Of a DNA stretch of 64,000 nt, positions 11,670-56,114 are shown one piece after another. Within the stretch, counting starts at the first letter, position 1; each line of letters begins with the position of its first letter. The stretch spans positions 2,494-66,493 of the forward strand of contig PUMD01000133.1 of NCBI GenBank assembly GCA_003551215.1, in the 5' to 3' direction. This stretch comes from Clostridia bacterium. Lineage in GTDB: Bacteria > Bacillota > Sulfobacillia > SLMV01. The notes under the pieces were generated by a model, which saw only the letters and a list, made by a program, of their open reading frames with translations, made no database searches and was not told where the DNA came from. The translations under genes were made by a program, and so were the position numbers.

Positions 11670-11683
11670 ATCCAGATCTTAAA

Positions 11684-11707: not shown

Positions 11708-11733
11708 TGACAATCAACTGTGCACAGCGGAAC

Positions 11734-37348: not shown

Positions 37349-37484
37349 GTTGTTTGGTGTAAACGGTTGAGATGTATCGGTCGCCTGTTGGAGTTTGCGG
37401 CCTCTAGCATCGCGCCTTCAGCGACTCCGTATTGTCTTGTCGGCTATGATCTGAAGTTTCGATTTGGAAAGGGGTGCAAAGGTA

Positions 37485-38075
37485 GTGGACAAACAAGGCT
37501 TCGGAGGCCCCAGTGAAGATGGCGAAAGAACCGCTTGGTACGAGCGGCAGATCGACTGGGATGCCGTCGGGGATCGCCAGGAAAGTGCTGATTACGAAGA
37601 GGATATAGACTGGGATGCCGTCGAGGAGAAGGTGGACGAGATAATCAATGAATACGACGGAGATTCCGGCGCCCTGATCGAAGTGCTGCACGAAGTTCAG
37701 GAGCTGGTCGGGTATCTGCCGCAAAGGGTGCAGGTGCGGGTGGCTGACCGTCTCGGTCTATCGGTGAGTGAAGTCTACAGTGTGGTCACCTTTTACTCAC
37801 TGTTTTCTCTGAAACCCAAGGGCGAAAACCACATAACGGTATGCAAGGGTACCGCCTGTTACGTTCGCGGTGCAGCCCAGTTAATTGAAGAACTGGAAAA
37901 TCAACTGGGTATCTCTGTGGGCGATACCACAAGCGATGGAAAGTTTTCCCTGGAAGTGGTGAGGTGTCTGGGGGCGTGCGGGCTTGGTCCGGTAGCGATG
38001 GTTAACAACGAGGATGTTTTCGCGCGAATAACCGTCGATCAGGTTTCCGATATGCTGCAGCAGTACGAGGACTAG
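37485..38075 (+). CDS. hydC: NuoE-like [2Fe-2S] subunit of a multimeric [FeFe] hydrogenase (HydC/HndA-like), with an acidic N-terminal extension
   Basis: Thioredoxin-like 2Fe-2S motifs CKGTACYVRG...CLGACGLGP. N-terminus carries a duplicated IDWDAV segment. Start uncertain (GTG 37485 or TTG 37464). Confidence 0.7.
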   Translation: MDKQGFGGPSEDGERTAWYERQIDWDAVGDRQESADYEEDIDWDAVEEKVDEIINEYDGDSGALIEVLHEVQELVGYLPQRVQVRVADRLGLSVSEVYSVVTFYSLFSLKPKGENHITVCKGTACYVRGAAQLIEELENQLGISVGDTTSDGKFSLEVVRCLGACGLGPVAMVNNEDVFARITVDQVSDMLQQYED

Positions 38076-38085
38076 GCGGGCAATT

Positions 38086-38736
38086 ATGGAAGAGATATCG
38101 CTTCATGTGCTGGACATAGCAGAAAACTCCATAAATTCGGGAGCCACTGAACTGGCCATCACTATAGAGGAGCTGCCAGGTGACGGTCTGCTGTCGGTGA
38201 GTATCGCCGATGACGGGGGCGGTATCGCGTCCGATATGCTTCCAAAAGTGGCGGACCCTTTTACTACCAGTAGGACTACGCGAAAAGTCGGCCTGGGGCT
38301 GGCCTTTTTGCAGGAAGCCTGCTGTTCTGCTGGTGGCAACCTTCAGGTCCGTTCCGATTGCCGGGGTACCGTGGTTGCTGCTACCTTTCAGTACGGACAT
38401 ATTGACCGTCCTCCGCTCGGGGATATGGCCTCCACATTGGTGGTACTGGTGGCAACAAAGCCGGGCTTGCGGGTTTCGTATCGGCACGACGTGGGGGACA
38501 GAACGTTCGAGTTCGATACCAAGCAGCTGGACGAGTGGTTTGGCGACCTGGGCGAAAAACAGCAGCGCAGTCCGGTCGTGCTCCAGTGGCTGAGGCGGTA
38601 TCTTGAGGATAACTTGGAATCGCTGCGCGAGGGAGTACAGACGGATGTTCATAATCAAGGACACGCAGGCGACCAAGACCAAAGCCTGATCCGTCGGTCG
38701 CCGGCGGGGAGCATTGATCAACAACAGACTGACTGA
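38086..38736 (+). CDS. Histidine-kinase-like ATPase domain protein (HATPase_c only) embedded in the hydrogenase operon
   Basis: N box HVLDIAENSINSG. G boxes DDGGGI and GLGLAF. No HisKA/phospho-acceptor domain. Confidence 0.6.
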   Translation: MEEISLHVLDIAENSINSGATELAITIEELPGDGLLSVSIADDGGGIASDMLPKVADPFTTSRTTRKVGLGLAFLQEACCSAGGNLQVRSDCRGTVVAATFQYGHIDRPPLGDMASTLVVLVATKPGLRVSYRHDVGDRTFEFDTKQLDEWFGDLGEKQQRSPVVLQWLRRYLEDNLESLREGVQTDVHNQGHAGDQDQSLIRRSPAGSIDQQQTD

Positions 38737-38754
38737 GCGAAGGGGGAGACAACG

Positions 38755-41700: not shown

Positions 41701-41823
41701 CGAAAGGGATTCTCGGTTGTCGAGTTAGGGTATTCCCCAGAGCAAGCAGTGGCGGAGGCCAGAAGATGCCTCAGGTGCGATGTTGAAGACGTGTCTCAGT
41801 CGTCGGGCGAGGCTGCGAATTAA
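38755..41823 (+). CDS. hydB: NuoF-like flavoprotein subunit (HydB/HndC-like) fused to a GltD/NfnB-like NAD(P)H oxidoreductase domain
   Basis: N-terminal thioredoxin-like 2Fe-2S (CAGAGC...CMGPC). NuoF FMN/NADH site ([16 protein letters not shown]; [12 protein letters not shown]). Two ferredoxin-like CxxCxxC clusters. Then a GltD-type module ([19 protein letters not shown]...; [17 protein letters not shown]). 1022 aa single ORF. RBS GGGGGAG. Confidence 0.8.
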
Positions 41824-41842
41824 ATGACCGGAGGTGAGTGCA

Positions 41843-43576
41843 GTGAGTGAAGTTTCTTTAACCATAAACGGACGTGACGTATCTGCGGCTCCCGGGACAA
41901 CGATTCTTGAGGCAGCCAAGCAGATCGATGTTGATATACCAACCCTGTGCTATCTCGAGGGGATCAACGAGATAGGCGCCTGCCGGGTCTGTGTTGTCGA
42001 ATGTGAGGGCAGCCTGCTGGCTGCCTGTACGACCCCGGTGACTGATGGAATGTCCGTGGTCACTAACAGTCCGAAGGTGAGAGCTGCCCGTCGAACCAAT
42101 GTTGAACTCATCCTCTCAGACCACGATGGCGACTGTCTATCCTGCAGCCGCAGCATGAACTGTGAGCTGCAGACCATTGCCCGCAACCTCGGAATTCGGG
42201 AAATCAGATATGAGGGAGAGATGTCCAGCCACCCTCGAGATGAGTCCAGTCCTTCACTGGTCCGGGATCCAGACAAATGCATTCTCTGTCAGCGGTGCTC
42301 AAGTGTCTGCAAGCAGGTTCAGGACGTGGAGGCCATCGATACCGTGGGACGCGGTTTTCAGATGCAGGTCGGTCCGGCCTTTGAGCAGACCATGGACGAG
42401 ATAGCCTGTGTCAATTGCGGTCAATGCATTCTCGTGTGCCCCACTGGTGCAATCACTGAGAAGGATTACAGAGAGGAAGTCTGGGGTGCTCTGAGCGACC
42501 CTGACAAACACGTAGTGGTTCAGACTGCTCCCGCTGTCCGGGTGTCCATTGGTGAAACTTTGGGCATGGAGCCTGGCAGTATTGTAACCGGACAGATGGT
42601 GGCCGGGCTGCGTCTTTTGGGCTTCGACAGGGTGTTTGACACTGATTTCGCAGCTGATCTGACTATAATGGAGGAAGGGAGCGAACTGCTGGCCCGCCTG
42701 AACGAAGGCGGTACGGTCCCGCTGCTGACCTCCTGTAGCCCCGGGTGGATAAAATACGTGGAGCATTTCTATCCGGAATTCACGGATCATCTCTCTACGT
42801 GCAAGTCTCCGCAGCAGATGTTCGGGGCACTGGCCAAGACTTTCTACGCGGAGAAGGCGGGAATCAAACCGGAAGATATTTTTGTGGTATCGGTAATGCC
42901 GTGCACCGCGAAGAAATTTGAGGCCCAGAGGCCGGAAATGGGAGCCAGCGGTTACGCCGACGTGGATGTCGTTCTGACCACCCGCGAGATGGGGCTGATG
43001 TTTTCGGAAGCCGGAGTAGACCTGAGACATCTCGAGGAGGAAGAGTTCGACGATCCTCTCGGGATATCAACTGGTGCCGCGGCTGTTTTCGGCGCTACCG
43101 GTGGCGTGATGGAAGCGGCTCTTCGCACGGTGTACGAGCTGGTTACCGGAGAGGAGCTTGAGGAGCTGGACTTTCACGATGTCCGTGGGTTGCAAGGAGT
43201 CAAGGAAGCCGAAGTTGATCTGCAGGGTACCACGGTTAAAGTGGCGGTGGCCCACGGCCTGAGCAAGGCACGCGGTGTCCTTGACGCCATTAAAGAAGGA
43301 AAAGCCGACTACACGTTTGTGGAAGTGATGTGCTGTCCGGGAGGTTGCATTGGCGGTGGCGGTCAGCCCCTACCCACGGATGACGAGATCAGACAGAAGC
43401 GGATCGACGCCATCTATCAGGTTGATAGAGACATGCCCCTGCGTAAATCGCACGAGAACCCGGCCGTGCAGGCTCTGTACGAGGAATATCTAGGTGAACC
43501 TCTCAGCGACAAGTCACATGAGCTTCTGCACACCGATTATTTGAGGCGCGAGGCGCACGCCGGGTATATCGGCTGA
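41843..43576 (+). CDS. hydA: [FeFe] hydrogenase catalytic subunit HydA (HndD-like), with an L1 motif variant
   Basis: N-terminal plant-type 2Fe-2S and 4Fe-4S ferredoxin domains. H-cluster motifs L1 TSCSPGW (canonical TSCCPxW), L2 MPCTAKKFE, L3 EVMCCPGGCIGGGGQP. GTG start after GGAGGTGA. Confidence 0.85.
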   Translation: MSEVSLTINGRDVSAAPGTTILEAAKQIDVDIPTLCYLEGINEIGACRVCVVECEGSLLAACTTPVTDGMSVVTNSPKVRAARRTNVELILSDHDGDCLSCSRSMNCELQTIARNLGIREIRYEGEMSSHPRDESSPSLVRDPDKCILCQRCSSVCKQVQDVEAIDTVGRGFQMQVGPAFEQTMDEIACVNCGQCILVCPTGAITEKDYREEVWGALSDPDKHVVVQTAPAVRVSIGETLGMEPGSIVTGQMVAGLRLLGFDRVFDTDFAADLTIMEEGSELLARLNEGGTVPLLTSCSPGWIKYVEHFYPEFTDHLSTCKSPQQMFGALAKTFYAEKAGIKPEDIFVVSVMPCTAKKFEAQRPEMGASGYADVDVVLTTREMGLMFSEAGVDLRHLEEEEFDDPLGISTGAAAVFGATGGVMEAALRTVYELVTGEELEELDFHDVRGLQGVKEAEVDLQGTTVKVAVAHGLSKARGVLDAIKEGKADYTFVEVMCCPGGCIGGGGQPLPTDDEIRQKRIDAIYQVDRDMPLRKSHENPAVQALYEEYLGEPLSDKSHELLHTDYLRREAHAGYIG

Positions 43577-43604
43577 TATGGAAGAGCCTGGAGGTGAAGC
43601 TGAC

Positions 43605-43970
43605 ATGAAGATTGAGTCTCTGGATGATCTCCGCAAAGTCCGGGAGCAGGCCAAGGAAGGCATCAGCGTGCGGGAAGGCGGCGATGTCAAGATAGTAGTG
43701 GGCATGGGCACATGCGGCATCGCTGCTGGCGCGCGTGAGGTACTCTCGGCGGTACTGGAGGAGCTGGCGGAGAGAAACATTGTTGGAGTTGATGTTACAC
43801 AGACCGGTTGTGCTGGCTTGTGTGAACATGAACCCCTCCTTGAAGTCATCACCGAGGACCAGCCGCGCGTAGTGTACGGAAAGGTGACACCAGATCGGGC
43901 CAGGAAAATAGTGGTACAGCACCTGATCAATAGGCAGATAGTAGGTGAATGGGTACTCAAGAAGGATTGA
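43605..43970 (+). CDS. Stand-alone thioredoxin-like [2Fe-2S] ferredoxin (14-kDa HndB/HydD-like)
   Basis: GMGTCGIAAGAREV...TGCAGLCEHEPLLEV motifs. ATG 7 nt after GGAGGTGA. Confidence 0.65.
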   Translation: MKIESLDDLRKVREQAKEGISVREGGDVKIVVGMGTCGIAAGAREVLSAVLEELAERNIVGVDVTQTGCAGLCEHEPLLEVITEDQPRVVYGKVTPDRARKIVVQHLINRQIVGEWVLKKD

Positions 43971-44006
43971 GTTGGTTGTGCGAGAAGCCCATACGAGGGA
44001 ATCGTC

Positions 44007-44600
44007 GTGTCGGGCGGCGTAGCGATATTCTCGCTCCGGCACGACGATAGCCCTCCGATATCGCCCATTGTATATGCGGGGCTGGACCTTTTGTCCCGGG
44101 TGGTTGTCGGGCAATTCGATACGGAAGAAGGTGTCCTCTTGCAGCTGGAATATGAAGTAAAGGGGATGGATTTCCGGAATGCAGGCAAGGCTTCAACTAG
44201 AGTCCGGAAGAGGCTGCAGCAGCTGGGCCTCGACTCGACAACCCTCAGAAGCGTTGCGGTTATCTGTTATGAGGCGGAGATGAACATCGTAATACACGCC
44301 TATGAAGGACGCCTTATAGTGGATATAGATACGACCATGATCGAGATAACAGCCCGGGACCGGGGACCAGGGATTGAGGACATAGAACGTGCCATGCAGG
44401 ACGGGTTCTCTACGGCGCCCGAGCACGTGCGCGAAATGGGTTTCGGTGCGGGTATGGTCCTCACAAACATCAAGAGGCTGGCTAATTCCCTGCAGTTGGA
44501 ATCCACTGAGGGTGAGGGTACATGTTTGAAAGCGGTAGTCTACTACGGCTACCCACAGAAAGGTGGTGTTCAGTCGTGCCAGGGAAGTTTCACTCCGTGA
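44007..44600 (+). CDS. RsbW/SpoIIAB-type serine-protein kinase (anti-sigma-regulatory-factor-like HATPase)
   Basis: HATPase_c_2-like boxes (EAEMNIVIHA; ARDRGPGI; GFGAGM). GTG start after GAGGGA. Confidence 0.55.
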   Translation: MSGGVAIFSLRHDDSPPISPIVYAGLDLLSRVVVGQFDTEEGVLLQLEYEVKGMDFRNAGKASTRVRKRLQQLGLDSTTLRSVAVICYEAEMNIVIHAYEGRLIVDIDTTMIEITARDRGPGIEDIERAMQDGFSTAPEHVREMGFGAGMVLTNIKRLANSLQLESTEGEGTCLKAVVYYGYPQKGGVQSCQGSFTP

Positions 44601-46258
44601 AGCTGATAGAAGACGAGTGTGAGGGCTGTACCAACTGTATTCAAAATTGTCCTACCGAGGCCATTCGGGTACGGGACGGCAAAGCACAGATATTTGAGGA
44701 ACGTTGCATCGACTGCGGCGAATGCATAAGGCATTGCCCGAATCAGGTCAAGACGGCGGTTACGGATGATCTGAAGGCGCTCGGACGCTTTCAGTATAAC
44801 GTCGCTATACCAGCTCCCGCTTTTTTTGGGCAATTTGATCAGGGAGTAACGGCGGATGACATCCTCGCGGGTCTGCTTAACGTGGGCTTTGACGATGTGT
44901 TTGAGGTGGCAGTTGGTGCTGAAGCGGTAACCCTGGCGATTCGCCGATACATTGAAGGAGCCGCCTGCCGTTCACCGCTTATATCTTCGGCATGTCCGGC
45001 TATTGTACGCCTCATCCAGATCCGGTTCCCTGATCTGCTGGATCAGATAATACCCATTCACACTCCGATGGACATGGCTGCCAGACTGGCCAAAAGGAAA
45101 GTGGCCGATGAGCGAGATCTAGCCCTTGAGGATATAGGAGTGTTTTTTGTCAGTCCGTGCCCGGCGAAGGTCACCGCTGTCAAGGAACCGCTGGGAACCA
45201 GCGAGACAGATGTGGACGGGGCAATAGGTGTCGGCGAAATTTACGGCCAGGTGCGTTCCAAGACCGGGCGCGGCGAAGAGAAAAACCTGAGCAGAGCATC
45301 CGGTTTGGGGGCTCAATGGGGGTTTTCCGGTGGTGAAAATCAGGCCATCAACTCAGGAGTCCTTCTGGCGGTAGATGGGATTCAGAGTGCCATTTCAGTC
45401 CTGGACGGCGTGGAAAAAGGCGAGCTGCAGTCAGTAGATTACATTGAGTGTCAGGCCTGCATCGGTGGCTGCGTGGGTGGGGCTTTGATGGTTCAGAACC
45501 CGTTTTTGGCGCGCTCGCGGGTGGAGCGCATGGTGGAACAGATGGATCCGGGCAAAAGATACGAGCCTAGTGTGGACATGGCAGAAGCTACCCAGCTGTT
45601 TGACCGCGGGGAATTCGATCTTACCGAACCCATCCTCGCTCGCCCAGCCATGCGCCTGGATGAGGATGTCAACGTAGCTATGGACAAAATGGCCCGGTTG
45701 GATGAATTGAGCGAGGAACTGCCTGGTTACGATTGCGGTTCCTGTGGAGCTCCTACCTGTCGTGCCCTGGCTGAAGATATCGTTCAGGGGTTGTCAGTCC
45801 GAACCGACTGCATTTTTGAACTGCGAGAAGAGGTCTCTACCCTGGCTGAACAGATAAGCACAATTGTCCAGAGGCGCATGCCGATGATGAGCACCGAGGA
45901 GGAGCGGAAAGTGTTTGATGAGCTCACTCTCAGCCATGTTGCAGACGAGCTGGAGCTCTGGGCAGTGGCATTTGAAGATGTCCTGGACTCCCGTGTGATC
46001 CGAGGAGCTTACTGCTCAGACCTTCTCAGCGATGTAATGGCTAACGCTGGGGAGGGGAGCCTGTGGATTACCATTCAGACCCACCAGAATATTGTGGCGG
46101 TGGCCCTCATGGTTTCGCTTGGAGCCATAGTGGTCTGCGGAGGACGCGAACCCAGCCCGGGAACTGTGGTGAGGGCTGAAGAGGAGAACATCCCACTGCT
46201 GATTGCCGAGGATGATTCGTACACAGTGGCGGCCAAACTGCACAGCTTGACAATGTAG
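44576..46258 (+). CDS. hydS: Putative sensory [FeFe]-hydrogenase-like protein (HydS/HfsB-like) with a C-terminal Fe-S (CGxCGxxxC) and DRTGG-like domain
   Basis: Two 4Fe-4S ferredoxin motifs. H-cluster-like L1 SSACPAIV (proton-relay Cys replaced by Ala), L2 SPCPAKV, L3 ECQACIGGCVGG. C-terminal CGSCGAPTC and ...VCGGREP. Start uncertain (GTG 44576/44597 or ATG 44522). Confidence 0.65.
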   Translation: MPGKFHSVKLIEDECEGCTNCIQNCPTEAIRVRDGKAQIFEERCIDCGECIRHCPNQVKTAVTDDLKALGRFQYNVAIPAPAFFGQFDQGVTADDILAGLLNVGFDDVFEVAVGAEAVTLAIRRYIEGAACRSPLISSACPAIVRLIQIRFPDLLDQIIPIHTPMDMAARLAKRKVADERDLALEDIGVFFVSPCPAKVTAVKEPLGTSETDVDGAIGVGEIYGQVRSKTGRGEEKNLSRASGLGAQWGFSGGENQAINSGVLLAVDGIQSAISVLDGVEKGELQSVDYIECQACIGGCVGGALMVQNPFLARSRVERMVEQMDPGKRYEPSVDMAEATQLFDRGEFDLTEPILARPAMRLDEDVNVAMDKMARLDELSEELPGYDCGSCGAPTCRALAEDIVQGLSVRTDCIFELREEVSTLAEQISTIVQRRMPMMSTEEERKVFDELTLSHVADELELWAVAFEDVLDSRVIRGAYCSDLLSDVMANAGEGSLWITIQTHQNIVAVALMVSLGAIVVCGGREPSPGTVVRAEEENIPLLIAEDDSYTVAAKLHSLTM

Positions 46259-46282
46259 GGGTCGATAATCTTGCGGTCCTGG

Positions 46283-47017
46283 ATGGTGGATCTGCACATC
46301 CATACCGCCCTATCGCCGTGTGCCAGTGATGATATGACACCGGACAACATTGTGGCTGCTTCTCGAGAACGCAATCTCGACGTCATAGGAATAGCTGATC
46401 ATAATTCAGCGGCGAATGTGCGGGCGGTGGTGGCGGCTGCCGACAGCTTTGACCTGGTCGTGCTGCCTTGCTTGGAAGTTCAGACTTCCGAAGAGGTACA
46501 TGTGCTGTGCGTCTTCGATGATCTGGAGAGCGTTGCGGCATGGCAAGAGCATGTCTACCGGCACCTGCCAGATCGGGCCAATGATGAGGAGATTTTCGGG
46601 CGCCAGCATCTGTACGACGAATCGGGTATACTGTCGGGCAGCGAAAACCAGCTGCTATTGGTGAGCGCGGATTTGACCCTGGAATCAGTTTTTGAGGTGG
46701 TTTCGGTGCTGGGAGGGGTGTGTATTCCGGCCCATGTTGACCGTCGCAGCTTCGGACTTCTGGGAGTGTTGGGATTCGTCCCGGAGTCGTTGGACATATC
46801 AGCAGTCGAGGTGTCGCCCAATTTTCCGGGTGATGATGGTTTGAGCATACCGGACTCGGCCGCTACCGTACGTTTTTCTGATGCCCACACTCTGTCAGAT
46901 CTGGGGAACCAGTTTACAACTATGTGGATGGAAGCCCCGACTGTTGAGTGCCTGATGCAGGCCTTCAGGGGAGATGGAGGGAGAAGGGTCAAACCGCGGT
47001 TCGCCAGGGGGGATTAG
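46283..47017 (+). CDS. PHP-domain phosphoesterase
   Basis: HIHTALSP...ADHNS...PAHVDR His/Asp motifs of the polymerase and histidinol-phosphatase fold. Confidence 0.6.
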   Translation: MVDLHIHTALSPCASDDMTPDNIVAASRERNLDVIGIADHNSAANVRAVVAAADSFDLVVLPCLEVQTSEEVHVLCVFDDLESVAAWQEHVYRHLPDRANDEEIFGRQHLYDESGILSGSENQLLLVSADLTLESVFEVVSVLGGVCIPAHVDRRSFGLLGVLGFVPESLDISAVEVSPNFPGDDGLSIPDSAATVRFSDAHTLSDLGNQFTTMWMEAPTVECLMQAFRGDGGRRVKPRFARGD

Positions 47018-47043
47018 CAGCCCTACAGAAAGGAGGAGGTGAC

Positions 47044-49152
47044 GTGGCACAGCAGGTAGTTTACACGGTCTTGGATCAATGCCGTCGCTGTTATCACTGC
47101 GTGCGTGAATGCCCGGTGAAAGCGATAAAGGTGGAAGAAGGTCAGGCCTGGGTGATTGAGGAGCTGTGCATCTCATGCGGAACTTGTGTTAGAAACTGTC
47201 AGCTGCGGGCCAAGACTTACCTCAATGTGGTTCCAGAGTGTGAAAAAGAGCTGGGAGCCAGCCGTCACTCCGTGGCCATGCTTGCACCCTCCTTTGTTGC
47301 CTCATTTACCGAAGTGCAGCCCGGTCAGGTGGTAGCAGCCCTCAAGCGCCTGGGCTTCGATCAGGTGGTGGAAGTGGCCTATGGAGCCGAGTTGACGGCT
47401 TTGGCGTATGAGCAGTTTATCAATGAAGTCATGAACAACGGTGCGGGAGCAAATCAGAATGGCCACACGCAACGTCCACCGTTCCTCAGCAGCGCCTGTC
47501 CGGCGATAGTCAATCTGGCTCAGATTCACTACCCTCAGCTGCTGGAGCATCTGGTGCCGATTGTCTCTCCCATGGTTGCCCTGGCCCGTTTTCTTCGCTG
47601 GCGCGCCGACAGGAGCGAAGAGCCGCAGCCGTTTGTGGTGTTCGTGGGTCCCTGCGTGGCGAAAAAAAGCGAAGTTGACGACCCTAATCTGCGCGGTGAC
47701 GTCGATCTGGTTTTGACCTTCGCAGAACTCCGTCAGATGTGCGAGGAGAAAGATATTGATATCGAAGCGCTACAGCCGGCCGAATTCGACCCTCCCCATC
47801 CTTCGGTAGCCCGAATTTTTCCTCTTTCCGGGGGACTGTTGCGTTCGACGGGGGAACGTACGGATCTGATCAATCCTGATTTCGAAGTGGTTGAAGGTAA
47901 AAACGACGTGGTTGAGCTCTTTGATTCGTTGACCAATGGTGAGTCGGTAGACACCTCCCTGGTTGATATCCTGCTGTGTGAAGGATGCATTGCCGGTCCG
48001 GTGATAGACAGTGACTTGCCCTATATAAAACGACGCGAACAGGTGGTCAACTACACGCGTAGCACGGTAGGAAGCAGTGAACTGAGGCGTGGTAGTCCAC
48101 CGGAAAGCTGTTTTCCCTTGGAGCACCTTAGAAGGACTTTCGAGCCGCAGGCACAGCATCTTGCGGTCCCATCAGAGGAGGAAATACGTTCAATACTGCA
48201 ACGTGTGGGGAAGTCAGAGCCCGAAGATGAGCTGAACTGCGGGGCTTGTGGTTACGGTACCTGCCGGGATAAGGCGGTAGCTGTCCACCGGGGACTGGCA
48301 GAGGCGGAAATGTGCCTTCCTTATATGCTCGAGAAAATGCAGGAGACAGTAAAGCAGTTAGAAGAATCCTATGAAGAGCTGCATGAAATGTACCATGAGC
48401 TGCAGGAGACGCAGAAAGAGCTGGTGCAGGCGGAAAAGATGTCCTCCTTGGGGCAGATAGCGGCGGGAGTGGCCCATGAGATTAACAATCCGCTCAGCGG
48501 CATCCTCCTGCACGTCGACCAGGTAGAGCGGAACGATGACCAACACGTACAGACCATCAGGAAGGAAGCTGCCCGCTGCAAAGATATAGTTCAAAATCTG
48601 TTGAACTTCGCCAGACAATCAAGACTTCGAAAGCAGCCAGTCGGGTGGAATTCGTACGTGCAACAGGTGGTAGAGCAGTATCGAGGCCAGATGTCAAAGC
48701 AAGTGGAGGTTGAGCTCGACCTGCATGCCAGCGCCGACCGCCAGATACAGTTGGACCCCGAGCAGATGAAGAGGGTGCTGACAAACCTTCTGGACAATGC
48801 TGTGGATGCAGTGGATGAATCGGGCAGAGTGACAGTGGCAACTCACTATAATCAGTACACCAAGGAGGTCTCGGTGGTCGTCCAGGATGATGGTGAGGGC
48901 ATATCGGAAGAGAACCAACAGCGGTTGTTTACCCCATTTTTCACAACCAAAGAGCCAGGTAAGGGAACTGGTCTGGGGCTGCCTATGGCCCATGGCATTG
49001 TGAAGATGCACCGGGGTGATATTGAAATTGACTCTGAGGTGGGAGCGGGCACAGAGGTCAAGGTAACGCTGCCTAGGGACACTGAGGGAGCTGCGGCAAT
49101 CGTCGGCGCAGGTGAACCACGCAAGGAAGGTTCATCCGACGTAATTTCGTAA
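47044..49152 (+). CDS. Sensory [FeFe]-hydrogenase-like domain fused to a histidine kinase (HisKA plus HATPase_c)
   Basis: Two CxxCxxC ferredoxin motifs. L1 SSACPAIV, L2 GPCVAKKSE, L3 CEGCIAGP. Then H box AHEINNPLSG and G boxes (DDGEGI; GTGLGLPMAHGIV). GTG start after GGAGGAGGTGA. Confidence 0.7.
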   Translation: MAQQVVYTVLDQCRRCYHCVRECPVKAIKVEEGQAWVIEELCISCGTCVRNCQLRAKTYLNVVPECEKELGASRHSVAMLAPSFVASFTEVQPGQVVAALKRLGFDQVVEVAYGAELTALAYEQFINEVMNNGAGANQNGHTQRPPFLSSACPAIVNLAQIHYPQLLEHLVPIVSPMVALARFLRWRADRSEEPQPFVVFVGPCVAKKSEVDDPNLRGDVDLVLTFAELRQMCEEKDIDIEALQPAEFDPPHPSVARIFPLSGGLLRSTGERTDLINPDFEVVEGKNDVVELFDSLTNGESVDTSLVDILLCEGCIAGPVIDSDLPYIKRREQVVNYTRSTVGSSELRRGSPPESCFPLEHLRRTFEPQAQHLAVPSEEEIRSILQRVGKSEPEDELNCGACGYGTCRDKAVAVHRGLAEAEMCLPYMLEKMQETVKQLEESYEELHEMYHELQETQKELVQAEKMSSLGQIAAGVAHEINNPLSGILLHVDQVERNDDQHVQTIRKEAARCKDIVQNLLNFARQSRLRKQPVGWNSYVQQVVEQYRGQMSKQVEVELDLHASADRQIQLDPEQMKRVLTNLLDNAVDAVDESGRVTVATHYNQYTKEVSVVVQDDGEGISEENQQRLFTPFFTTKEPGKGTGLGLPMAHGIVKMHRGDIEIDSEVGAGTEVKVTLPRDTEGAAAIVGAGEPRKEGSSDVIS

Positions 49153-49342
49153 ACAGCCTGCGGTGGGCAGTTGTGTTATTCTGCGGTTACGTATTTTGGA
49201 CGCTGTTGGTAGGTTTGGAGATTTCCTGAGCTGGTCAGAGACATTCTGGCAGTGAGGGGTAGTTTTCAGTACAACATACCTCCTGAGTCGAGGGTGGTGC
49301 AAAGGACACCTGAACCACAGGGAGGCACCATGCATACCAAGG

Positions 49343-49374
49343 GCCTACCTGTGTTTCTGCATGGGTAGGCTTTT
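49343..49374 (+). terminator. Rho-independent terminator, about 190 nt downstream of the hydrogenase-kinase fusion gene
   Basis: GCCTACC, a 13-nt loop, GGTAGGC, then TTTTT. Confidence 0.5.
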
Positions 49375-49458
49375 TACGTCAATCGCCGGTGTTGCCAGTC
49401 AACTAAGACAACGTGACGAGAGCGAGTGAGCAAAGGCTTCGGGAATGGGAGGCAAACC

Positions 49459-49737
49459 ATGGATCAAAGGATTGGCGTGGTGGGGATCGTGATAGAAGAC
49501 CGAGAGTGCATCGCACCTGAGGTTAACCGAATACTGAGCCAGTTTGGGGATGTTATCGTCGGCAGAATTGGGGTGCCGCGTCCGGACCATGACTTGGCGG
49601 TGATCGCGCTTATCGTACAGGGCACTGCAGATCAGATGGGAGCTCTTACTGGTCGGTTGGGGAATCTACCTTCGGTTCAAGTGAAGTCCGGAATGACCTC
49701 AAAGAGAGTGAAGACAGACGGGGAGGGATGCAGGTGA
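49459..49737 (+). CDS. Small ACT-like putative iron-only-hydrogenase system regulator (TM1266-like)
   Basis: About 92 aa, MDQRIGVVGIVIEDRE... Typical size and position immediately upstream of hydG. RBS GGGAGG. Confidence 0.5.
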   Translation: MDQRIGVVGIVIEDRECIAPEVNRILSQFGDVIVGRIGVPRPDHDLAVIALIVQGTADQMGALTGRLGNLPSVQVKSGMTSKRVKTDGEGCR

Positions 49738-51137
49738 AGCAGCTGCAGGAGGTGATTTCGGAGGAGAGAATATTCAATGTGCTTTCGGATGCTGCCGGAT
49801 CCAGCCGGCAGGAAGCCGGACGCATCATAGACAAGGGCCGCAACCTACAAGGTCTGAGCCCCAAAGAGGCGGCAGTTCTGCTGACCATCGACGAAGAGGA
49901 TCTGCGGCAGCTATTGCTGCAGGCAGCTCGAGAGGTAAAGGAACAGATTTACGGAAAGCGGCTGGTGATCTTCGCTCCGCTTTATCTGGATAATATCTGC
50001 CATAACAGCTGTCTTTACTGCGGTTTCCGAAAAGAGAACCAGAAAATAGAACGACGGCGGTTGTCGATGGAGGAAATAAAAAAAGAAGTCTCTGCTTTGC
50101 AGAAGGAAGGACACAAGCGGCTGTTGATTCTTACCGGCGAGAAGCGGGATGCGGATCTGGACTATCTGCTGGATGGAATAGCTGCTGCATACCAGGTGCA
50201 GACCAAAAAGGGAGGACAGACTCGCAGGATCAACGTCGAGGTCGCTCCCATGACCGACAAAGAGTTTGAGTCTCTTGCGGAAGCGAATATAGGTACGTAT
50301 ACCTGTTTTCAAGAGACCTACCACCGCCCCACCTATAAGAGAATGCACCCGCGAGGGCGGAAGGCAGATTTCGACTGGCGTCTGACGGTTATGGATCGCG
50401 CTCAGCGTGCTGGTATAGACGATGTGGGTATCGGAGCGCTTTTTGGTCTTTATGATTACCGCTATGAGGTGGTGGCAATGCTCCTGCACGCTCAGTATTT
50501 GAGTGAAACCTACGGAGTCGGACCGCACACTGTATCTGTCCCGCGGTTGCAGCCCGCTGCCGAGGCACCGATACGCAAGTCCCCTTACCCGATTTCCGAT
50601 GAGGATTTCAAGAAATTGGTCGCCGTGCTCCGATTGGCTATCCCTTATACCGGGATAATCCTGAGCACCCGGGAACCGGTTTCCCTGCGTAATCAGCTAT
50701 TTATGCACGGTGTTTCTCAGATCAGCGTCGGCTCCCGGACTGCCCCCGGTGCCTACCAGCAAGACGAGCAGGGCTGCGGCAAGCGAGCGCAGTTTACTCT
50801 GCACGATAGTCGTCCTATGTCCGAAGTGGTGGCTGAAGTCGCCAAGGCCAACTATATTCCCAGTTTTTGCACTGCCTGCTACAGAGAAGGGAGAACCGGT
50901 GAGGCTTTCATGGATCTGGCCATACCGGGCAAGATTAGCAACTACTGCAAGCCGAATGCCATGTTGACCTTCAAGGAATATCTCACGAACTATGCCGATG
51001 AAGTGACCACAAAGGCAGGAGAGGCCTGTCTCAACCACCATCTGCGGGAAATCAAGAGCGGAGATAAACAGCTAGCCCAATGGATTGAGCGGGCCTTCGA
51101 CCGCATGCAACGGGGGGAACGCGACATTTACCTGTAG
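49728..51137 (+). CDS. hydG: [FeFe] hydrogenase maturase HydG (radical SAM tyrosine lyase)
   Basis: Radical-SAM CHNSCLYCGF. C-terminal auxiliary cluster motif C-x2-C-x22-C (FCTACYREG...ISNYC). 469 aa. Confidence 0.85.
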   Translation: MQVKQLQEVISEERIFNVLSDAAGSSRQEAGRIIDKGRNLQGLSPKEAAVLLTIDEEDLRQLLLQAAREVKEQIYGKRLVIFAPLYLDNICHNSCLYCGFRKENQKIERRRLSMEEIKKEVSALQKEGHKRLLILTGEKRDADLDYLLDGIAAAYQVQTKKGGQTRRINVEVAPMTDKEFESLAEANIGTYTCFQETYHRPTYKRMHPRGRKADFDWRLTVMDRAQRAGIDDVGIGALFGLYDYRYEVVAMLLHAQYLSETYGVGPHTVSVPRLQPAAEAPIRKSPYPISDEDFKKLVAVLRLAIPYTGIILSTREPVSLRNQLFMHGVSQISVGSRTAPGAYQQDEQGCGKRAQFTLHDSRPMSEVVAEVAKANYIPSFCTACYREGRTGEAFMDLAIPGKISNYCKPNAMLTFKEYLTNYADEVTTKAGEACLNHHLREIKSGDKQLAQWIERAFDRMQRGERDIYL

Positions 51138-51140
51138 GAG

Positions 51141-52445
51141 GTGATCGCCATTCAGAAAACACCGAGAGCAACTCGTCCACATATAGCAGTTTTCGGCAGG
51201 CGCAATGTTGGTAAATCCACCTTGGTCAACGCGCTGGCAAACCAAAACGTAGCAGTGGTTTCGTCGGTACCGGGTACCACAACTGATCCGGTTTACAAAT
51301 CAATGGAACTTCACCCGTTCGGACCGGTTGTGCTGATTGATACTGCCGGAATAGATGATGCGGGCGACCTGGGGGAAGTACGGGTGAACCGCACCAGGCG
51401 TGTGCTTCGCCGGACCGATCTGGCTTTATTGGTGGTCGATCCGCGGCAGGGAATCGGCGAGTGGGAAACGGACTTTCTGTCAGAGGTTAACCGCGATAAA
51501 GTTTCTGTGCTGGCAGTCATAAACAAAATTGATCGAGCGGAAAGAAAGGATCTAAGAGGTATCCGGCGAGAAGTCAGAAACGGGCTGGATCTCCCGGTAG
51601 TCCGGGTCAGTGCCGAGCAGCATAGGGGCATTGATGCACTGCGGGATGAGATAGTGGCCCATCTTCCCCGCAGGGCGAAGGCAGATACCATCGCTGCGGA
51701 CCTTGTATCGGAGGGGAATCTGTGCCTGCTGGTCACTCATATCGATGAGGCTGCTCCCCAGGGCCGGCTGATTTTACCTCAGGTGCAGACGCTGCGCGAT
51801 CTGTTGGACCATGGCTGTCCTGCGCTGGTGACGAAAGAAAGCGAACTACCTCTGGCCCTCAGCAGATTATCGTCGCCGCCGGGTCTGGTTATATGTGATT
51901 CGCAGGTGTTTCCCCGGGTACAGGAGTGCTTGCCGGGGGATGTTTCATTGACCAGCTTCTCCATTTTATTTGCGCGACTTAAAGGGGATTTTCAATTCTA
52001 CCTGCGGAGCCTGCAACAGTTGGAGAGACTTGCCCCCCAAACGAGGATCATCGTAGCCGAGGCATGTACGCATAGGGTTACGCACGAGGATATAGGGCGC
52101 GTCAAGATCCCGCGCATGTTGTGCAGCCGATACCCCGATCGAGCATTTATATTTGATTACTGCTCCGGCAGCGATTTTCCCGATGACCTCGATCCCTACG
52201 ATCTAATGTTGCACTGCGGCGGGTGCATGTTGAATCGCACAGAAGTTCTGTCGCGTCTCGGCGAAGCCCAGGAGGCCTCACTTCCAGTAATAAACTATGG
52301 TATGCTCCTCGCCTACCTCAACGGTATCCTTGGACGAGCCCTTCAACCGATACTGGGCAAACAACCTGCTTATCAATATTGTGGCATCGGGGATGATGTG
52401 CGCGTTGGTGACGATGCAAGGCGAGGTGAAGATGATGTCAGTTAG
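51141..52445 (+). CDS. hydF: [FeFe] hydrogenase maturation GTPase HydF
   Basis: GRRNVGKSTL (G1), DTAG (G3), NKID (G4). C-terminal CxH...HCGGC cluster motif. Start codon uncertain (GTG 51141 abuts the GGAGG). Confidence 0.8.
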   Translation: MIAIQKTPRATRPHIAVFGRRNVGKSTLVNALANQNVAVVSSVPGTTTDPVYKSMELHPFGPVVLIDTAGIDDAGDLGEVRVNRTRRVLRRTDLALLVVDPRQGIGEWETDFLSEVNRDKVSVLAVINKIDRAERKDLRGIRREVRNGLDLPVVRVSAEQHRGIDALRDEIVAHLPRRAKADTIAADLVSEGNLCLLVTHIDEAAPQGRLILPQVQTLRDLLDHGCPALVTKESELPLALSRLSSPPGLVICDSQVFPRVQECLPGDVSLTSFSILFARLKGDFQFYLRSLQQLERLAPQTRIIVAEACTHRVTHEDIGRVKIPRMLCSRYPDRAFIFDYCSGSDFPDDLDPYDLMLHCGGCMLNRTEVLSRLGEAQEASLPVINYGMLLAYLNGILGRALQPILGKQPAYQYCGIGDDVRVGDDARRGEDDVS

Positions 52446-53526
52446 TGAGACAGCATACAGTCACGAGTATATCCACAACATCTTAAAACGGGCACACTGC
52501 CAGGGCCCGGAACTATCCGTAGGGGAGATCGAGGCGCTGCTCAGCATAGGTCATCCCGACGGGCTCGAATCTCTCTACGCTATTGCTGATAAGGTTCGGA
52601 AAGATACGGCAGGTGATGGGATTCACCTGCGAGGACTGATAGAGTTTTCCAATTACTGTCGCAGAAATTGCCTGTACTGCGGGCTGCGCAGGGCTAACCG
52701 TCGTCTGACCCGGTATCGGATGGATCAAACAGAGGTTTTGGGAGTTGTGCAGGCCATGGCGGAGCGGGGTATAAAGACCGTGGTATTGCAGTCGGGGGAA
52801 GATCCGCACTTCACACAGGCGCGGATGGTTTCCCTCGTTGAAAAGATAAAATCGCGTTTTGATATAGCCATTACCCTGAGTGTGGGTATACGATCTCAAA
52901 AGGATCTGATCGCTTTCCGGGCGGCGGGTGCTGACCGCTATCTACTGCGCCATGAAACTGCAAACCGCCAGCTATACTCTCAGCTGCACCCAGATTCCCG
53001 ACTCGGCGACCGAGTAGAAATGCTGCATGCGCTCAGCGAATTGGGATATGATATCGGCACTGGACCCATGGTGGGGCTTCCCGGACAGACTTACCGAGAT
53101 CTGGCCTTGGATATTGATCTGGCCCGACGACTCAAAGCCGATATGTTTGGCGTTGGTCCGTTCATCCCTCATCCGGATACTCCCCTGAGTGAGGCACAGG
53201 AGGGTACAGCAGAGGACACTTTCAAGATGATTGCGCTGGCACGTATAGTTTTAAGGGAGGTTCACATACCTGTGACTACCGCCCTGACCACCCTGGATGC
53301 CGAGGCCCGGGAGAAGGGATGGAACAGAGGGGCAAACGTAGTTATGCCGAACGGCACGCCAGCTCCTTATCGCGAGCAGTATGAATTATATAAGGATAAG
53401 AGATGCCTGCAGGATTCGCTGAAGCGATGTGCGGTTTGTCTGCAGATGCGGGTTCAGTCCGTTTCACGCCATATCAGCTCAGGTTATGGTGATTCCCTGC
53501 GCAGTGACAGACAGAGGTCTTCCTGA
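52432..53526 (+). CDS. hydE: [FeFe] hydrogenase maturase HydE (radical SAM)
   Basis: CRRNCLYCGLRRAN radical-SAM motif, about 364 aa. ATGATG start after GGCGAGGTGAAG, overlapping the hydF stop. Confidence 0.8.
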   Translation: MMSVSETAYSHEYIHNILKRAHCQGPELSVGEIEALLSIGHPDGLESLYAIADKVRKDTAGDGIHLRGLIEFSNYCRRNCLYCGLRRANRRLTRYRMDQTEVLGVVQAMAERGIKTVVLQSGEDPHFTQARMVSLVEKIKSRFDIAITLSVGIRSQKDLIAFRAAGADRYLLRHETANRQLYSQLHPDSRLGDRVEMLHALSELGYDIGTGPMVGLPGQTYRDLALDIDLARRLKADMFGVGPFIPHPDTPLSEAQEGTAEDTFKMIALARIVLREVHIPVTTALTTLDAEAREKGWNRGANVVMPNGTPAPYREQYELYKDKRCLQDSLKRCAVCLQMRVQSVSRHISSGYGDSLRSDRQRSS

Positions 53527-53596
53527 TAACGTTGGAGGAAAGTCCTCCTATCTAAAGATTGCGGGCATCAAGATCTGGCGATTGTGATTGATCGAA

Positions 53597-53631
53597 CAAG
53601 ATTGAGTTGCAAGATTGAGACATAGTATAAT
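53597..53631 (+). promoter_or_regulatory. Promoter-like region with tandem CAAGATTGAG repeats upstream of the stand-alone receiver gene
   Basis: CAAGATTGAG at 53597 and 53610 (13-nt period), further GATTG copies upstream, -10 TATAAT at 53626. Confidence 0.3.
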
Positions 53632-53749
53632 TGCATTGCTGACCAGCAGCCAGTAAGAAAACCGATTGTAACGATCTTCTGCTCGGTCTGCAGGGTCGTT
53701 TGCATCTTCTAACATAGACCGAGTCCTTACGGGAAGGGAGGTCAAATCG

Positions 53750-54154
53750 ATGACAGAAGGAAAGACTGTTCTCCTGATTGATGATGATGCCGATTTCGTA
53801 GACTTGAACAAAAAGGCTCTGGAGGATGCTGGTTACGAAGTGGAGACTGCTTATGATGGAGAAGAGGGCATGCAGAAAGCCAAAGATATCAAGCCGGATG
53901 CAATAGTCCTTGACGTTATGATGACTACCTCCACAGAAGGGTTTGAAGTGGCGCGGGATATGCGCAATGATCCCAAGACCAAGCACACCCCGATCATCAT
54001 GCTTACGTCCATAAATGCACCTGAGCACGGGCTGCCCCGTGCCCTCGGAGAGTATGACAAGGACGAGACTTGGAACCCGGTGGACGTATTCCTCAACAAG
54101 CCAGTGTCTCCTGAGGAGCTGCTAGAAAAGATAGAAGATGCCCTCAAACGGTAG
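53750..54154 (+). CDS. Stand-alone response-regulator receiver (CheY-like)
   Basis: LLIDDD, D in IVLDVMM, TPIIMLTS, NKP motifs. 134 aa with no output domain. Confidence 0.75.
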   Translation: MTEGKTVLLIDDDADFVDLNKKALEDAGYEVETAYDGEEGMQKAKDIKPDAIVLDVMMTTSTEGFEVARDMRNDPKTKHTPIIMLTSINAPEHGLPRALGEYDKDETWNPVDVFLNKPVSPEELLEKIEDALKR

Positions 54155-54169
54155 CATCTGACAGAACTG

Positions 54170-54432
54170 ACTTGGCGTCGCACAGACTCAGCAGACGATG
54201 ACGCAGGCTTTGCGGGAGTAAAGAGGAGAGCACCTGGGGCATCCGGTAATGAGGTCTCGAGTATGAGCAGTCTGACGATATCCAGCTGGATTTGATGATG
54301 GCGCACAGTGATGCAGGTTTCCACTATGCATGCGAGATCAAATCCCGAAATCAGGAAGTACCGGTGATGATGTTGACCGGAGCCGCATTGAACACGCAAC
54401 ATGGGGTCAGGCTTTTTAGATGCTGGCGAGCC
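54170..54432 (+). pseudogene. Frameshifted, degenerate remnant of a second receiver domain
   Basis: One frame reads ..DDDAGFAG... A +1 frame reads YEQSDDIQLDLMMAHSDAGFHYACEIKSRNQEVPVMMLTGAAL, matching the PDLILLDLMMPG...PIIMLTA receiver signature. No intact ORF. Confidence 0.45.
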
Positions 54433-54544
54433 AGGGATGGATAGCAGTGGCGCTTATTCGAAGACCCTCATTTCCAGGAGCGTCCTGCTGGAGACGTCCG
54501 ACGCTTGCTGGATCAGGCCTATGAGCGGTGCGACTTAGTGCTGT

Positions 54545-54574
54545 GGAGACCGGGTGGAATTCCACCCGGTCTCC
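54545..54574. repeat. Perfect 30-nt palindrome 20 nt upstream of the hybrid kinase gene
   Basis: GGAGACCGGGTGGAA|TTCCACCCGGTCTCC, exact reverse complement over 15+15 nt. Confidence 0.6.
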
Positions 54575-54593
54575 GTGTTAGAGGGGCGATAAT

Positions 54594-56114
54594 GTGACAA
54601 AACCTGAGGATCCCCAAAAATACGTACAGAACATCCTTGATGAGCAAGACGGTTCTCCTCAGATAATTGTTCTTGATGACGAGGAATCGATACGCTCGGG
54701 GTGTAAGAAAGCGCTGGAGGGTGAGGGCTTGGAGGTAGACGTTGCCGCCGATGGTGTGCAAGGTTGGGAGATGCTCAATCGCAAGGAGTATGATCTGGCA
54801 CTGGTGGATCTGAGGATGCCAGGTCTGGACGGTATATCAGTTCTCGAAAGGATGCAGGATGCGATGCCAGATGTGGTGACGATAGTGATCACCGGCTACG
54901 CTTCCTTTGAGACTGCCGTTGAGACCGTCAAGCTTGGGGCCTATGACTATATACCGAAGCCGTTTACTCCCGAGGAGCTGCGGAATGTGGTCAACCGGGG
55001 ACTGGAACGGCGATTTCTCCAGCTTGCCAACCGGCGATTGCGGGAAGAAAGAGAACGGAACCTCCTAACCCTCACTGAAGAAAGAAGCCGCCTGATAACC
55101 GTTCTGAACGCTATGTCTGACGGAGTACTGGTGATCAACCGATCGGGACAGCTGGTACTTTTCAACCCGAGCGCCCTGCATTGGGTGCTGAAGGACAGAC
55201 AAGTCAATGAAGAACAGCCCCCAGTAGCGCTGGAGGAAGCCGTCAGGGAGGAGGCCCTTTTGCAGCTTGTTGAGGCGATAGAACAGGATGAACAGCTGGA
55301 CCAGCAGGATGTTGAGCTAGAGATAGATGGTGAGCGGTTCATCCATGCCGCCGGGGCTGCCGTTCGGGACGAAAATGACCGTTACCTGGGCGTGGTGATT
55401 GTGCTGCGTGACATCACCGAGCGCAAGGAAATTGAGAAAATGAAGACAGCGCTGGTGAGGACGGTTTCACATGAGCTGAGGTCTCCGCTGGCAGCGGTAG
55501 AGGGTTATCTGAACTATCTTGATGATGAAGATCAGGACCCCTCCGAGCGGAGCCACATGGTGCACAGATGTCGCGAACGCATTCAGGGACTGCAGCAGAC
55601 CATAAATGATTTGCTTGACCTCTCCAGACTGGAAAGCGGACAGGTTCATCGGGAGCTAAGGAAGCACAACCTGACAGATATCCTCGATGAAATAGTGCAG
55701 CTGCAGAAAGGGGTTGCCGCAGAGCGAAATATTTCCATTGATCTTCATGCACCTGAGGATCTGCCGGTGCTGGCTGACAAGCGCGAACTGTCCGAGATAT
55801 TTGGCAATCTCATTTCGAATGCAATTAAGTACAATCAGGATGATGGGCAGGTATGGGTCAAGGCCGGAAGCGACGGCGAGTATATCGTCGTAGAGGTATC
55901 TGACACCGGTATCGGGATCAAGCCTGAGGCGCTGGATAGCATTTTTGATGAGTTCTATCGCGTTCGTGGCCGTCAGACGGCAAAGATCAGCGGGTCTGGC
56001 CTGGGACTGGCAATCGTTAAGCGGCTGGTGGAGCAGTACCAGGGCCGCATCTTAGTCGAAAGCGAGTTGGGCGAGGGCTCCACCTTTGAGGTGAATCTGC
56101 CCATTCGCCCCTAG
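54594..56114 (+). CDS. Hybrid sensor: N-terminal receiver plus PAS plus histidine kinase
   Basis: REC (IIVLDDEE; LALVDLRMPG; TIVITGYA; YIPKPF). PAS-like (LNAMSDGVLVINRSG). H box VSHELRSPLAAV. N/G boxes (NAIKYN; DTGIGI; GSGLGLAIV). GTG start after GAGGGG. Confidence 0.75.
   Translation: MTKPEDPQKYVQNILDEQDGSPQIIVLDDEESIRSGCKKALEGEGLEVDVAADGVQGWEMLNRKEYDLALVDLRMPGLDGISVLERMQDAMPDVVTIVITGYASFETAVETVKLGAYDYIPKPFTPEELRNVVNRGLERRFLQLANRRLREERERNLLTLTEERSRLITVLNAMSDGVLVINRSGQLVLFNPSALHWVLKDRQVNEEQPPVALEEAVREEALLQLVEAIEQDEQLDQQDVELEIDGERFIHAAGAAVRDENDRYLGVVIVLRDITERKEIEKMKTALVRTVSHELRSPLAAVEGYLNYLDDEDQDPSERSHMVHRCRERIQGLQQTINDLLDLSRLESGQVHRELRKHNLTDILDEIVQLQKGVAAERNISIDLHAPEDLPVLADKRELSEIFGNLISNAIKYNQDDGQVWVKAGSDGEYIVVEVSDTGIGIKPEALDSIFDEFYRVRGRQTAKISGSGLGLAIVKRLVEQYQGRILVESELGEGSTFEVNLPIRP

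Follow-up and report, generated by a model that had tools for sequence, protein, structure and literature searches.

Stem-loops placed between cistrons are a familiar means by which bacteria achieve differential expression within an operon, the REP hairpin between malE and malF of E. coli and the hairpins of the Rhodobacter puf operon being cases in point. Long palindromes are also known as DNA operators, as with QacR IR1, which extends over 28 bp. In the stretch of DNA analysed here (the window, 64 kb at its full length), an exact 15+15 palindrome lies in the gap between a single-domain receiver gene and the gene of a hybrid histidine kinase. Like the malE-malF and puf hairpins, it would form a stable, GC-rich stem without a U-tract between co-directional cistrons, located near the upstream stop codon and before the next ribosome-binding site. 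Unlike those hairpins, this putative RNA element is present in a single copy, and the cistron upstream of it appears to be dead. In its length and its perfect dyad symmetry the palindrome also resembles QacR IR1, but it has neither an overlapping promoter nor a nearby cognate regulator, and the spacing of the half-sites varies in its homologue.

The apparently dead cistron has its own counterparts among bacterial pseudogenes, which include decayed two-component genes of genomes undergoing reduction. A receiver can be recognised over its full length and in conserved synteny; its start is lost, part of its interior is deleted, its frame is shifted several times and missense changes have accumulated. 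Unlike the pseudogenes of reductive genomes, however, it represents an isolated loss in an otherwise intact operon; a related receiver (of type A, see below) adjoins the remnant, and relatives show the reciprocal loss.

Both features belong to a hydrogenase cluster that includes a putative H2-sensing phosphorelay. Sensory [FeFe]-hydrogenases have been described beside bifurcating hydrogenases and kinase-type proteins (PMC8163306, PMC3608648). As in the clusters of these studies, the window encodes an H-cluster protein that has FeS motifs at its N-terminus and a Cys motif at its C-terminus, and its gene adjoins HydABC-type and histidine-kinase-type genes. In contrast to them, the hydrogenase-like domain of the window is fused directly to HisKA-HATPase, and across the loci that we compared one or two single-domain receivers and a REC-PAS kinase come after this fusion. 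In the literature on sensory [FeFe]-hydrogenases (PMC8163306, PMC3608648) we found no experimental study of any part of a relay of this type.

Our reading of the locus is that the gap holds the pseudogene of a second receiver, followed by a palindrome that belongs to the ancestral spacer and acts as an RNA hairpin, and for this explanation as a whole we estimate a probability of about 0.7. The decay of the receiver is ordinary gene loss, and gene decay and intercistronic hairpins are both of kinds already known.

The hydrogenase locus and its relatives

The features of the locus are collected in Table 1. The fusion of a hydrogenase-like domain to HisKA-HATPase is presumed to be the H2-sensing kinase of the same phosphorelay, and a survey of Pfam domains found no DNA-binding output regulator encoded in the hydrogenase cluster. 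The gap between receiver A and the hybrid kinase measures 439 nt (54155-54593, forward strand); 3′ of the hybrid kinase lie genes for a class IV aminotransferase and ComEC. Judging from its sequence, the sigma-70-like match upstream of receiver A is likely the promoter of a transcript comprising receiver A, the remnant and the kinase. A consensus scan of the gap found no promoter-like site, hence none over the palindrome, and since the best promoter is located upstream of receiver A, transcription of the kinase probably runs through both the remnant and the hairpin.

Table 1. Features of the locus, with positions in the window
Feature	Position	Strand	Basis or remark
HydC-like gene	37464	+	Pfam-based domain content
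NuoF/HydB-like fusion	38755	+	Pfam-based domain content
HydA	41834	+	Pfam-based domain content
HydS-like protein	44522	+	Pfam-based domain content
[FeFe]-hydrogenase-like domain fused to HisKA-HATPase	46948..49152	+	Pfam Fe_hyd_lg_C, FeS, HisKA and HATPase_c
TM1266-like regulator	49426-49737	+	upstream of receiver A
HydG, HydF, HydE	49728-53526	+	upstream of receiver A
Sigma-70-like promoter match, TTGAGT-18-TATAAT	53602..53631	+	10/12 consensus positions; upstream of receiver A
Intact single-domain receiver, family A, 134 aa	53750..54154	+	Pfam Response_reg, 69.6 bits
Type-B receiver pseudogene (almost certain)	54172..54525	+	tblastn, frameshift-aware alignment, DNA alignment, HMM
Ancestral type-B stop region and start of spacer	54526..54544	+	DNA alignments to L002, L004 and L144
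Exact 15+15 palindrome	54545..54574	unstranded	equals its own reverse complement
Shine-Dalgarno-like AGAGGGG of the kinase	54580..54586	+	by eye; outside the hairpin; 7 nt to GTG 54594
REC-PAS-HisKA-HATPase hybrid histidine kinase, 506 aa, GTG start	54594..56114	+	Pfam

The related loci stem from Bacillota/Clostridia genomes assembled from metagenomes. Their hybrid kinase orthologues are 55-70% identical, none being closer, and the loci are syntenic, with the common gene order of hydrogenase-kinase fusion, receiver or receivers, and hybrid kinase. In these relatives, the receivers follow immediately after the fusion. Genes of the bifurcating hydrogenase are found upstream in every related contig that is long enough to show them, and those contigs that reach far enough downstream carry aminotransferase IV, ComEC, holA and rpsT.

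The single-domain receivers at these loci split into two families, A and B, with 32-40% identity between them. Type A comprises the intact receiver of the window, L004_rec1, L006_rec1 and L008_rec, which are 62-77% mutually identical, and L149_rec was assigned to it from its motifs; the window protein shares 65-69% identity with L004_rec1, L006_rec1 and L008_rec, as against 34-40% with family B. Type B comprises the receivers of L002, L003, L005 and L009 together with L004_rec2 and L006_rec2 (48-88% mutually identical), and the L144 receiver (P0129) belongs to it by a strong match to the type-B profile. Both receivers are kept in L004 and L006, B without A is found in L002 (= L148), L003, L005, L009 and L144, and A without B in L008 and L149. 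In eight related loci, an intact type-B receiver stands directly upstream of the same type of kinase.

Type B is a small, clade-restricted family, since a profile search of 5.8 billion proteins returned 8 clusters above 200 bits, after which the score fell to 130 bits for the next match; none of the 8 clusters comes from the organism of the window. In a crude neighbour-joining tree of the kinase N-termini, the window clusters together with L144 and L002. L148 differs from L002 at 1 position in 2008 nt and, owing to this near-identity, is uninformative on covariation.

The receiver remnant

As far as can be judged from sequence, the gap almost certainly contains a full-length but broken type-B receiver pseudogene. 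Using the type-B protein of L002 as the query, tblastn matched the gap with E = 7.6e-13 and 44% identity over 88 aa, reading through one stop, and a frameshift-aware alignment of protein to DNA spans the entire domain (54173 to about 54525). In this alignment, the L002 receiver scored 133 (53/115 identities) and the L144 receiver 126 (50/114), whereas 30 shuffled versions of the gap DNA scored -22 +/- 11, with a maximum of 5. The DNA of the remnant is colinear with intact type-B genes over the full gene, and its order and strand match those of the type-B gene in L002-L006, L009 and L144. An earlier note on this DNA, made from its letters, had read two strings of receiver residues here, DDDAGFAG and DIQLDLMMAHSDAGF...PVMMLTGAA. 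Both are present, in two different forward frames, and the view that the stretch is a decayed receiver is borne out by the scores.

The same note saw in the remnant a paralogue of the neighbouring receiver gene that had decayed, and this assignment has to be replaced by type B. The adjacent type-A protein gave the lowest-scoring tblastn match to the gap (E = 6.8e-4, 28 bits), and of the type-A proteins the neighbour scored 53 in the frameshift-aware alignment, with 38/114 identities, and the other 51. The profiles agree, in that the unstitched remnant frame reached 36.1 bits on the type-B HMM and 19-20 bits on the type-A HMMs; the stitched translation reached 61.6 bits on the type-B HMM. On the general Pfam model Response_reg (PF00072), with its cut-off of 30.2 bits, the central frame had 19.0 bits and the hand-stitched translation 21.8 bits, both short of the cut-off. 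When the remnant is compared with the two receiver domains of the window itself, the adjacent gene matches weakly (E = 7e-4) and the kinase's own REC domain does not match, such that the local domains alone would under-call the remnant and the orthologous loci are needed. An HMM search of the 64-kb window found no second type-B copy.

The lesions are of several kinds. The start codon is lost, with ATG changed to TTG plus an extra base, and about 40 nt are deleted near 54260, which removes helix alpha2. The number of frame disruptions varies from three to five with the guide sequence used (they lie near 54263, 54394, 54425 and 54468-54494), and there are in-frame stops. Missense changes have decayed the hydrophobic core of beta1 (RILMV to RTDSA), and the conserved Lys is lost (EKP to RRP or EDP). 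Still encoded are the DDD motif, the phospho-acceptor Asp (LDLMM) and the Thr of MMLTG. The damage goes well beyond the single +1 shift described earlier.

A further supposed lesion, the change of a key Pro (in LDLMMPG) to His, is not a lesion, since the His is native to type B: the remnant reads MMAHSD, the intact type-B proteins of L002 and L144 read MMEHSD, and the motifs of intact family-B members are LDLMMEHSD, MMEKSD and MMDQSD. Family A has the motifs VMMTTS, IMTTS, IMSTN and MMTTP; in L004_rec1 and L006_rec1, Pro is the second residue after MM, which is not the canonical Pro position of MMPG. The type-B stop is placed differently by two alignments, either at a disrupted GCCT(AT)GA near 54517-54525 or at the TAG of 54536-54538, and a GTGCTG motif just 3′ of the stop is common to the window and L144.

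The remnant yields no functional protein. For the (beta-alpha)5 domain of about 115 aa there is no uninterrupted ORF, the receiver being divided among two or more frames that contain stops, and the longest forward-strand ORF in the gap has 50 aa. The previous statement that the gap is free of ORFs of 60 aa or more holds for the forward strand but not for the reverse strand, on which two ORFs overlap the gap, at 53851-54402 (183 aa) and 54519-54761 (80 aa). They are mostly antisense to well-supported genes, and Pfam gave no match for them or for the small forward-strand ORFs in the gap. Annotation of the gap should record a response-regulator pseudogene rather than a non-coding spacer or a novel element.

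The palindrome before the kinase gene

The sequence GGAGACCGGGTGGAATTCCACCCGGTCTCC is identical to its reverse complement and ends 19 nt before the GTG of the kinase, in agreement with the exact 15+15 palindrome first reported. It is the sole perfect long inverted repeat in the 64-kb window, and none of 100 shuffles gave a match. Folded as RNA, it would have a stem of 13 bp closed by an AAUU loop, with a free energy of -28.2 kcal/mol (z = -7.1). Under either placement of the type-B stop, it is located in the ancestral spacer between B and the kinase, which in the relatives measures 51-92 nt, or is zero where the two genes overlap, as they do in L005 and L009.

The description of a very stable hairpin without a T-tract was accurate as well. 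Intrinsic terminators share with the palindrome a GC-rich stem-loop, here with a tetraloop, and in some unrelated metagenome contigs the 20-nt core of the palindrome is indeed accompanied by a T-run. Unlike in intrinsic terminators, however, the 8 nt that follow the stem in the window contain only 3 T (tail GTGTTAGA); the other strand has no U-tract of note either, and a consensus terminator scan calls nothing at the palindrome on either strand. Classical intrinsic termination is not expected from a hairpin that lacks a U-tract. In a search of 53400-54800 against Rfam 15, the best match had 19 bits, as compared with a gathering score of 100.

A homologous hairpin, GACCGGGCGG-tctcat-CCGCCCGGTC, is present in the same spacer of L144 (810-835 of that locus). 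Its counterparts in the window are the conserved core arms GACCGGGTGG (54548-54557) and CCACCCGGTC (54562-54571). The two loci agree at 19 of 20 positions in the stem and differ by one compensatory pair (U-A to C-G), whereas the loops differ in sequence and length (4 nt in the window, 6 nt in L144) and the flanks are about 50% identical. We estimate the chance of a 9/10 arm match within the 92-nt spacer at roughly 0.002-0.005. The covariation itself is non-significant, with 126 of 500 shuffles doing as well, because the conservation is that of two sequences and one compensatory pair. A stem this close to invariant would also suit a sequence-specific protein-binding site.

At the same place, L002 has a different, imperfect but strong hairpin (-24.7 kcal/mol), and the grouping of the kinase tree suggests that a stem-loop is probably ancestral to the subgroup of the window, L002 and L144. 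The spacers of L003, L004, L006 and L008 contain no significant hairpin. A covariance model of the window and L144 hairpins found only its own two members in the window and 10 related loci; a GGTGG/CCACC mini-hairpin that visual inspection had suggested in L004 and L006 lacks support from this model and was discarded.

Elsewhere in the window, a similar GC-rich gene-end hairpin without a T-tract is found at 11683-11708, 13 nt past the stop of the ORF 9072-11669 and between convergent ORFs. L005 has another such GC-rich hairpin, a perfect 15+15 palindrome without a T-tract at 12902-12931, 11 nt past a stop codon.

With respect to what the palindrome does, the likeliest reading is an RNA stem-loop between cistrons or at a gene end, with a function that we infer. 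We lean, if only modestly, towards a functional RNA stem-loop of some kind, and our confidence in any specific RNA mechanism is lower than that.

Perfect palindromes with zero spacer are the expected product of strand-switch copying. It is thus possible, though in our view rather unlikely, that template switching recently and neutrally produced the perfect palindrome, through an inverted duplication or the 'perfection' of a quasi-palindrome, once gene death had relaxed the constraint on this region, and that the palindrome adds no function to that of the ancestral 10-bp hairpin. The window and L144 in fact share just the inner 10 bp, the outer GGA/TCC and the AATT centre, which is self-complementary, being lineage-specific, and by analogy the zero-spacer perfect symmetry is what such copying would give. 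However, selection for a stronger stem would be expected to leave the same pattern, and the gene-end palindrome of L005 suggests that such structures are used in this group. A neutral origin is in any case compatible with the palindrome being an RNA stem-loop.

Besides a hairpin, the earlier note had offered a symmetric DNA operator, at which a dimeric or dimer-of-dimers transcription factor would control the kinase gene. This would make sense of the perfect two-fold symmetry including the central AATT, for which an RNA hairpin has no need, and of the near-invariance of the stem between the window and L144; the lack of an encoded DNA-binding output regulator in the cluster has been counted on the same side. 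Against it, there is no promoter-like site over or beside the palindrome (54480-54593), and in L144 the half-sites are spaced 2 bp further apart and the outer 3 bp are asymmetric, such that the exact zero-spacer symmetry is absent there. Furthermore, the lone stem change between the window and L144 is compensatory, as base pairing predicts, the hairpin at the same place in L002 differs in sequence, and the window contains no further copy or pair of half-sites, the regions upstream of the hydrogenase genes included. Single half-sites gave 9 extra matches in the window at up to 3 mismatches, as against 2.6 expected, but the five that were checked all lie inside coding ORFs, the best of them (38883-38896) encoding the conserved VETGC motif of HydB, and we rejected this excess as a signal in favour of chance or codon bias. 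The choice between hairpin and operator therefore leans to base-paired RNA, and an operator is unlikely. Similarly, we would give little credence to the more specific idea that GACCGGGYGG/CCRCCCGGTC is a sequence-specific RNA or DNA recognition element for a factor by which the second kinase's expression is tied to the H2-sensing relay.

That the palindrome belongs to a REP-like repeat family spread over the genome, as had also been considered earlier, or to a MITE-like one, is very improbable, and the same holds for the footprint of a mobile element. It is GC-rich, extragenic and of REP-like size, but the 64-kb window contains no second copy at up to 3 mismatches or by the covariance model, and the searches turned up no repeat family. 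The JGI metagenome contigs do not contain the 30-mer, nor does IMG/VR contain the 22-mer, and the homologous copy at the orthologous position of L144 argues for vertical descent rather than insertion. The 20-mer core does occur in 14 metagenome contigs, in about 10 distinct and apparently unrelated contexts, of which some are T-tailed and terminator-like and others apparently coding, with two small groups sharing flanks internally; these matches are best read as convergent occurrences and not as a mobile family. L136 carries the 28-mer beside an unrelated gene on a contig of 69% GC. A loop-degenerate 20-base pattern was matched in genome contigs of more than 120 unrelated, mostly high-GC genomes, and none of the fetched loci contains the 28-mer.

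That the pseudogene itself is an artefact of sequencing or assembly errors over an intact receiver, or a case of programmed frameshifting, is scarcely credible: the source is a metagenome assembly resting on one sequencing run, and one indel falls at a T5 run (CTTTTTAG, near 54415), but the Logan assembly of SRR490150 (L001), which may share reads with the window, matches it at 100% identity over 53700-54650, both flanking genes (134 and 506 aa) are intact, no correction of the reading frame repairs the 40-nt deletion or the loss of the ATG, the beta1 core and the Lys, and sequencing error is not a credible source of at least five indels and this deletion in 400 nt of DNA next to long intact ORFs.

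Gene loss, hairpin and putative relay

The history that we propose starts from an ancestor in which a type-B receiver sat between the [FeFe]-hydrogenase-histidine-kinase fusion and the hybrid kinase. The lineage of the window would have kept A while losing B, through deletion, frameshifts and missense decay, and the mRNA that links receiver A to the kinase probably still contains the remnant as an untranslated part. The palindrome, located outside the dead gene, would be an elaborated version of the ancestral stem-loop. Its hairpin may act as a leaky terminator or attenuator that lacks a T-tract, or as a barrier to exonucleolytic decay of the mRNA, and either role would set the expression of the upstream receiver relative to that of the downstream kinase. 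The hairpin would thereby have outlasted the gene that preceded it.

If the palindrome were truly a recognition element, it would be a dedicated cis-regulatory site of a so far uncharacterised [FeFe]-hydrogenase signalling pathway, and its retention past the death of the upstream gene would mark a functionally important part of the spacer. As an RNA hairpin, it is a candidate cis element for receiver-to-kinase expression, which is not unusual for bacterial operons. The window shows a type-B receiver in the middle of its loss, which is useful for the annotation of this signalling cluster, and the occurrence of A, B or both among the related loci suggests that these single-domain receivers are at least partly interchangeable in the putative relay.

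Hairpins between receiver and kinase

In the spacer that separates the single-domain receivers from the hybrid histidine kinase, hairpins are found in related loci as well as in the window (see table). The hairpin of the related locus L144 is a homologue of the core part of the palindrome in the window (the exact 15+15 inverted repeat 5' of the kinase), from which it differs by one compensatory pair. The hairpin of a second related locus, L002, of which an identical copy is present in L148, is unlike the window hairpin in sequence and aligns with it weakly for the 3' half; it may be a remodelled descendant.

At 54537-54597 of the window, the C-terminal frame of the decayed type-B receiver (..VRRLLDQAYER..) is open across the palindrome and ends at a TGA (54595-54597) that overlaps the GTG start of the kinase (ATGTGA). 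This arrangement is reminiscent of the related loci L005 and L009, where the stop of receiver B overlaps the kinase start.

Hairpins and hydrogenase genes in the window and related loci
Feature	Locus	Position	Setting
Hairpin GACCGGGCGG-tctcat-CCGCCCGGTC	L144	810-835	Spacer, type-B receiver to kinase
Imperfect hairpin, 15 bp, 8-nt loop, -24.7 kcal/mol	L002	5943-5981	Receiver-kinase spacer
Perfect 11-bp stem, 4-nt loop, AGGCCCCGGCG-atcc-CGCCGGGGCCT	Window	11683-11708	13 nt past stop of ORF 9072-11669
Perfect 15+15 palindrome ACGTTTCCCCGGCTGCAGCCGGGGAAACGT	L005	12902-12931	11 nt past stop of thiamine-binding-protein gene
HydC-like gene	Window	within 37464-53526	
NuoF/HydB-like protein, 1022 aa, fused to pyridine-nucleotide-disulphide oxidoreductase module	Window	within 37464-53526	
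HydA	Window	within 37464-53526	
HydS-like protein with DRTGG domain	Window	within 37464-53526	
Hydrogenase-HisKA-HATPase fusion	Window	within 37464-53526	
TM1266-like regulator	Window	within 37464-53526	
HydG/F/E	Window	within 37464-53526	

Palindrome matches and gene-end hairpins elsewhere

The left arm of the palindrome with its flank has a 14-nt exact match, GTGGAGACCGGGTG, at window 38883-38896, which lies within the HydB-like coding sequence, encodes VETGC and is probably due to chance. The 20-mer CCGGGTGGAATTCCACCCGG is repeated in metagenome contigs (L130-L143; 51-72% GC) in about 10 distinct contexts, in some of which it resembles the stem of a terminator with a T-run after it, while in others it is apparently coding (e.g., ..PGGIPPG..).

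The 11-bp hairpin of the window is flanked by convergent ORFs and carries no T-tract. In its gene-end style it is similar to the palindrome hairpin.

The hydrogenase cluster and the loss of type B

The genes listed in the table make up a large [FeFe]-hydrogenase cluster. Those related loci that reach far enough have the receivers directly 3' of the hydrogenase-kinase fusion; in the window, the TM1266-like gene and HydGFE are inserted between the two. By longest-ORF calls, HydF (51141-52445) and HydE (52297-53526) overlap by 149 nt, and the real HydE start probably lies further downstream than called.

Two other related loci have type A as their only receiver (L008, 2446-2868; L149, 619-1023), and neither leaves any room for a type-B remnant 5' of the kinase. 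Type B has therefore been lost cleanly elsewhere, and among the loci seen it is the window alone that retains a visible remnant of it.
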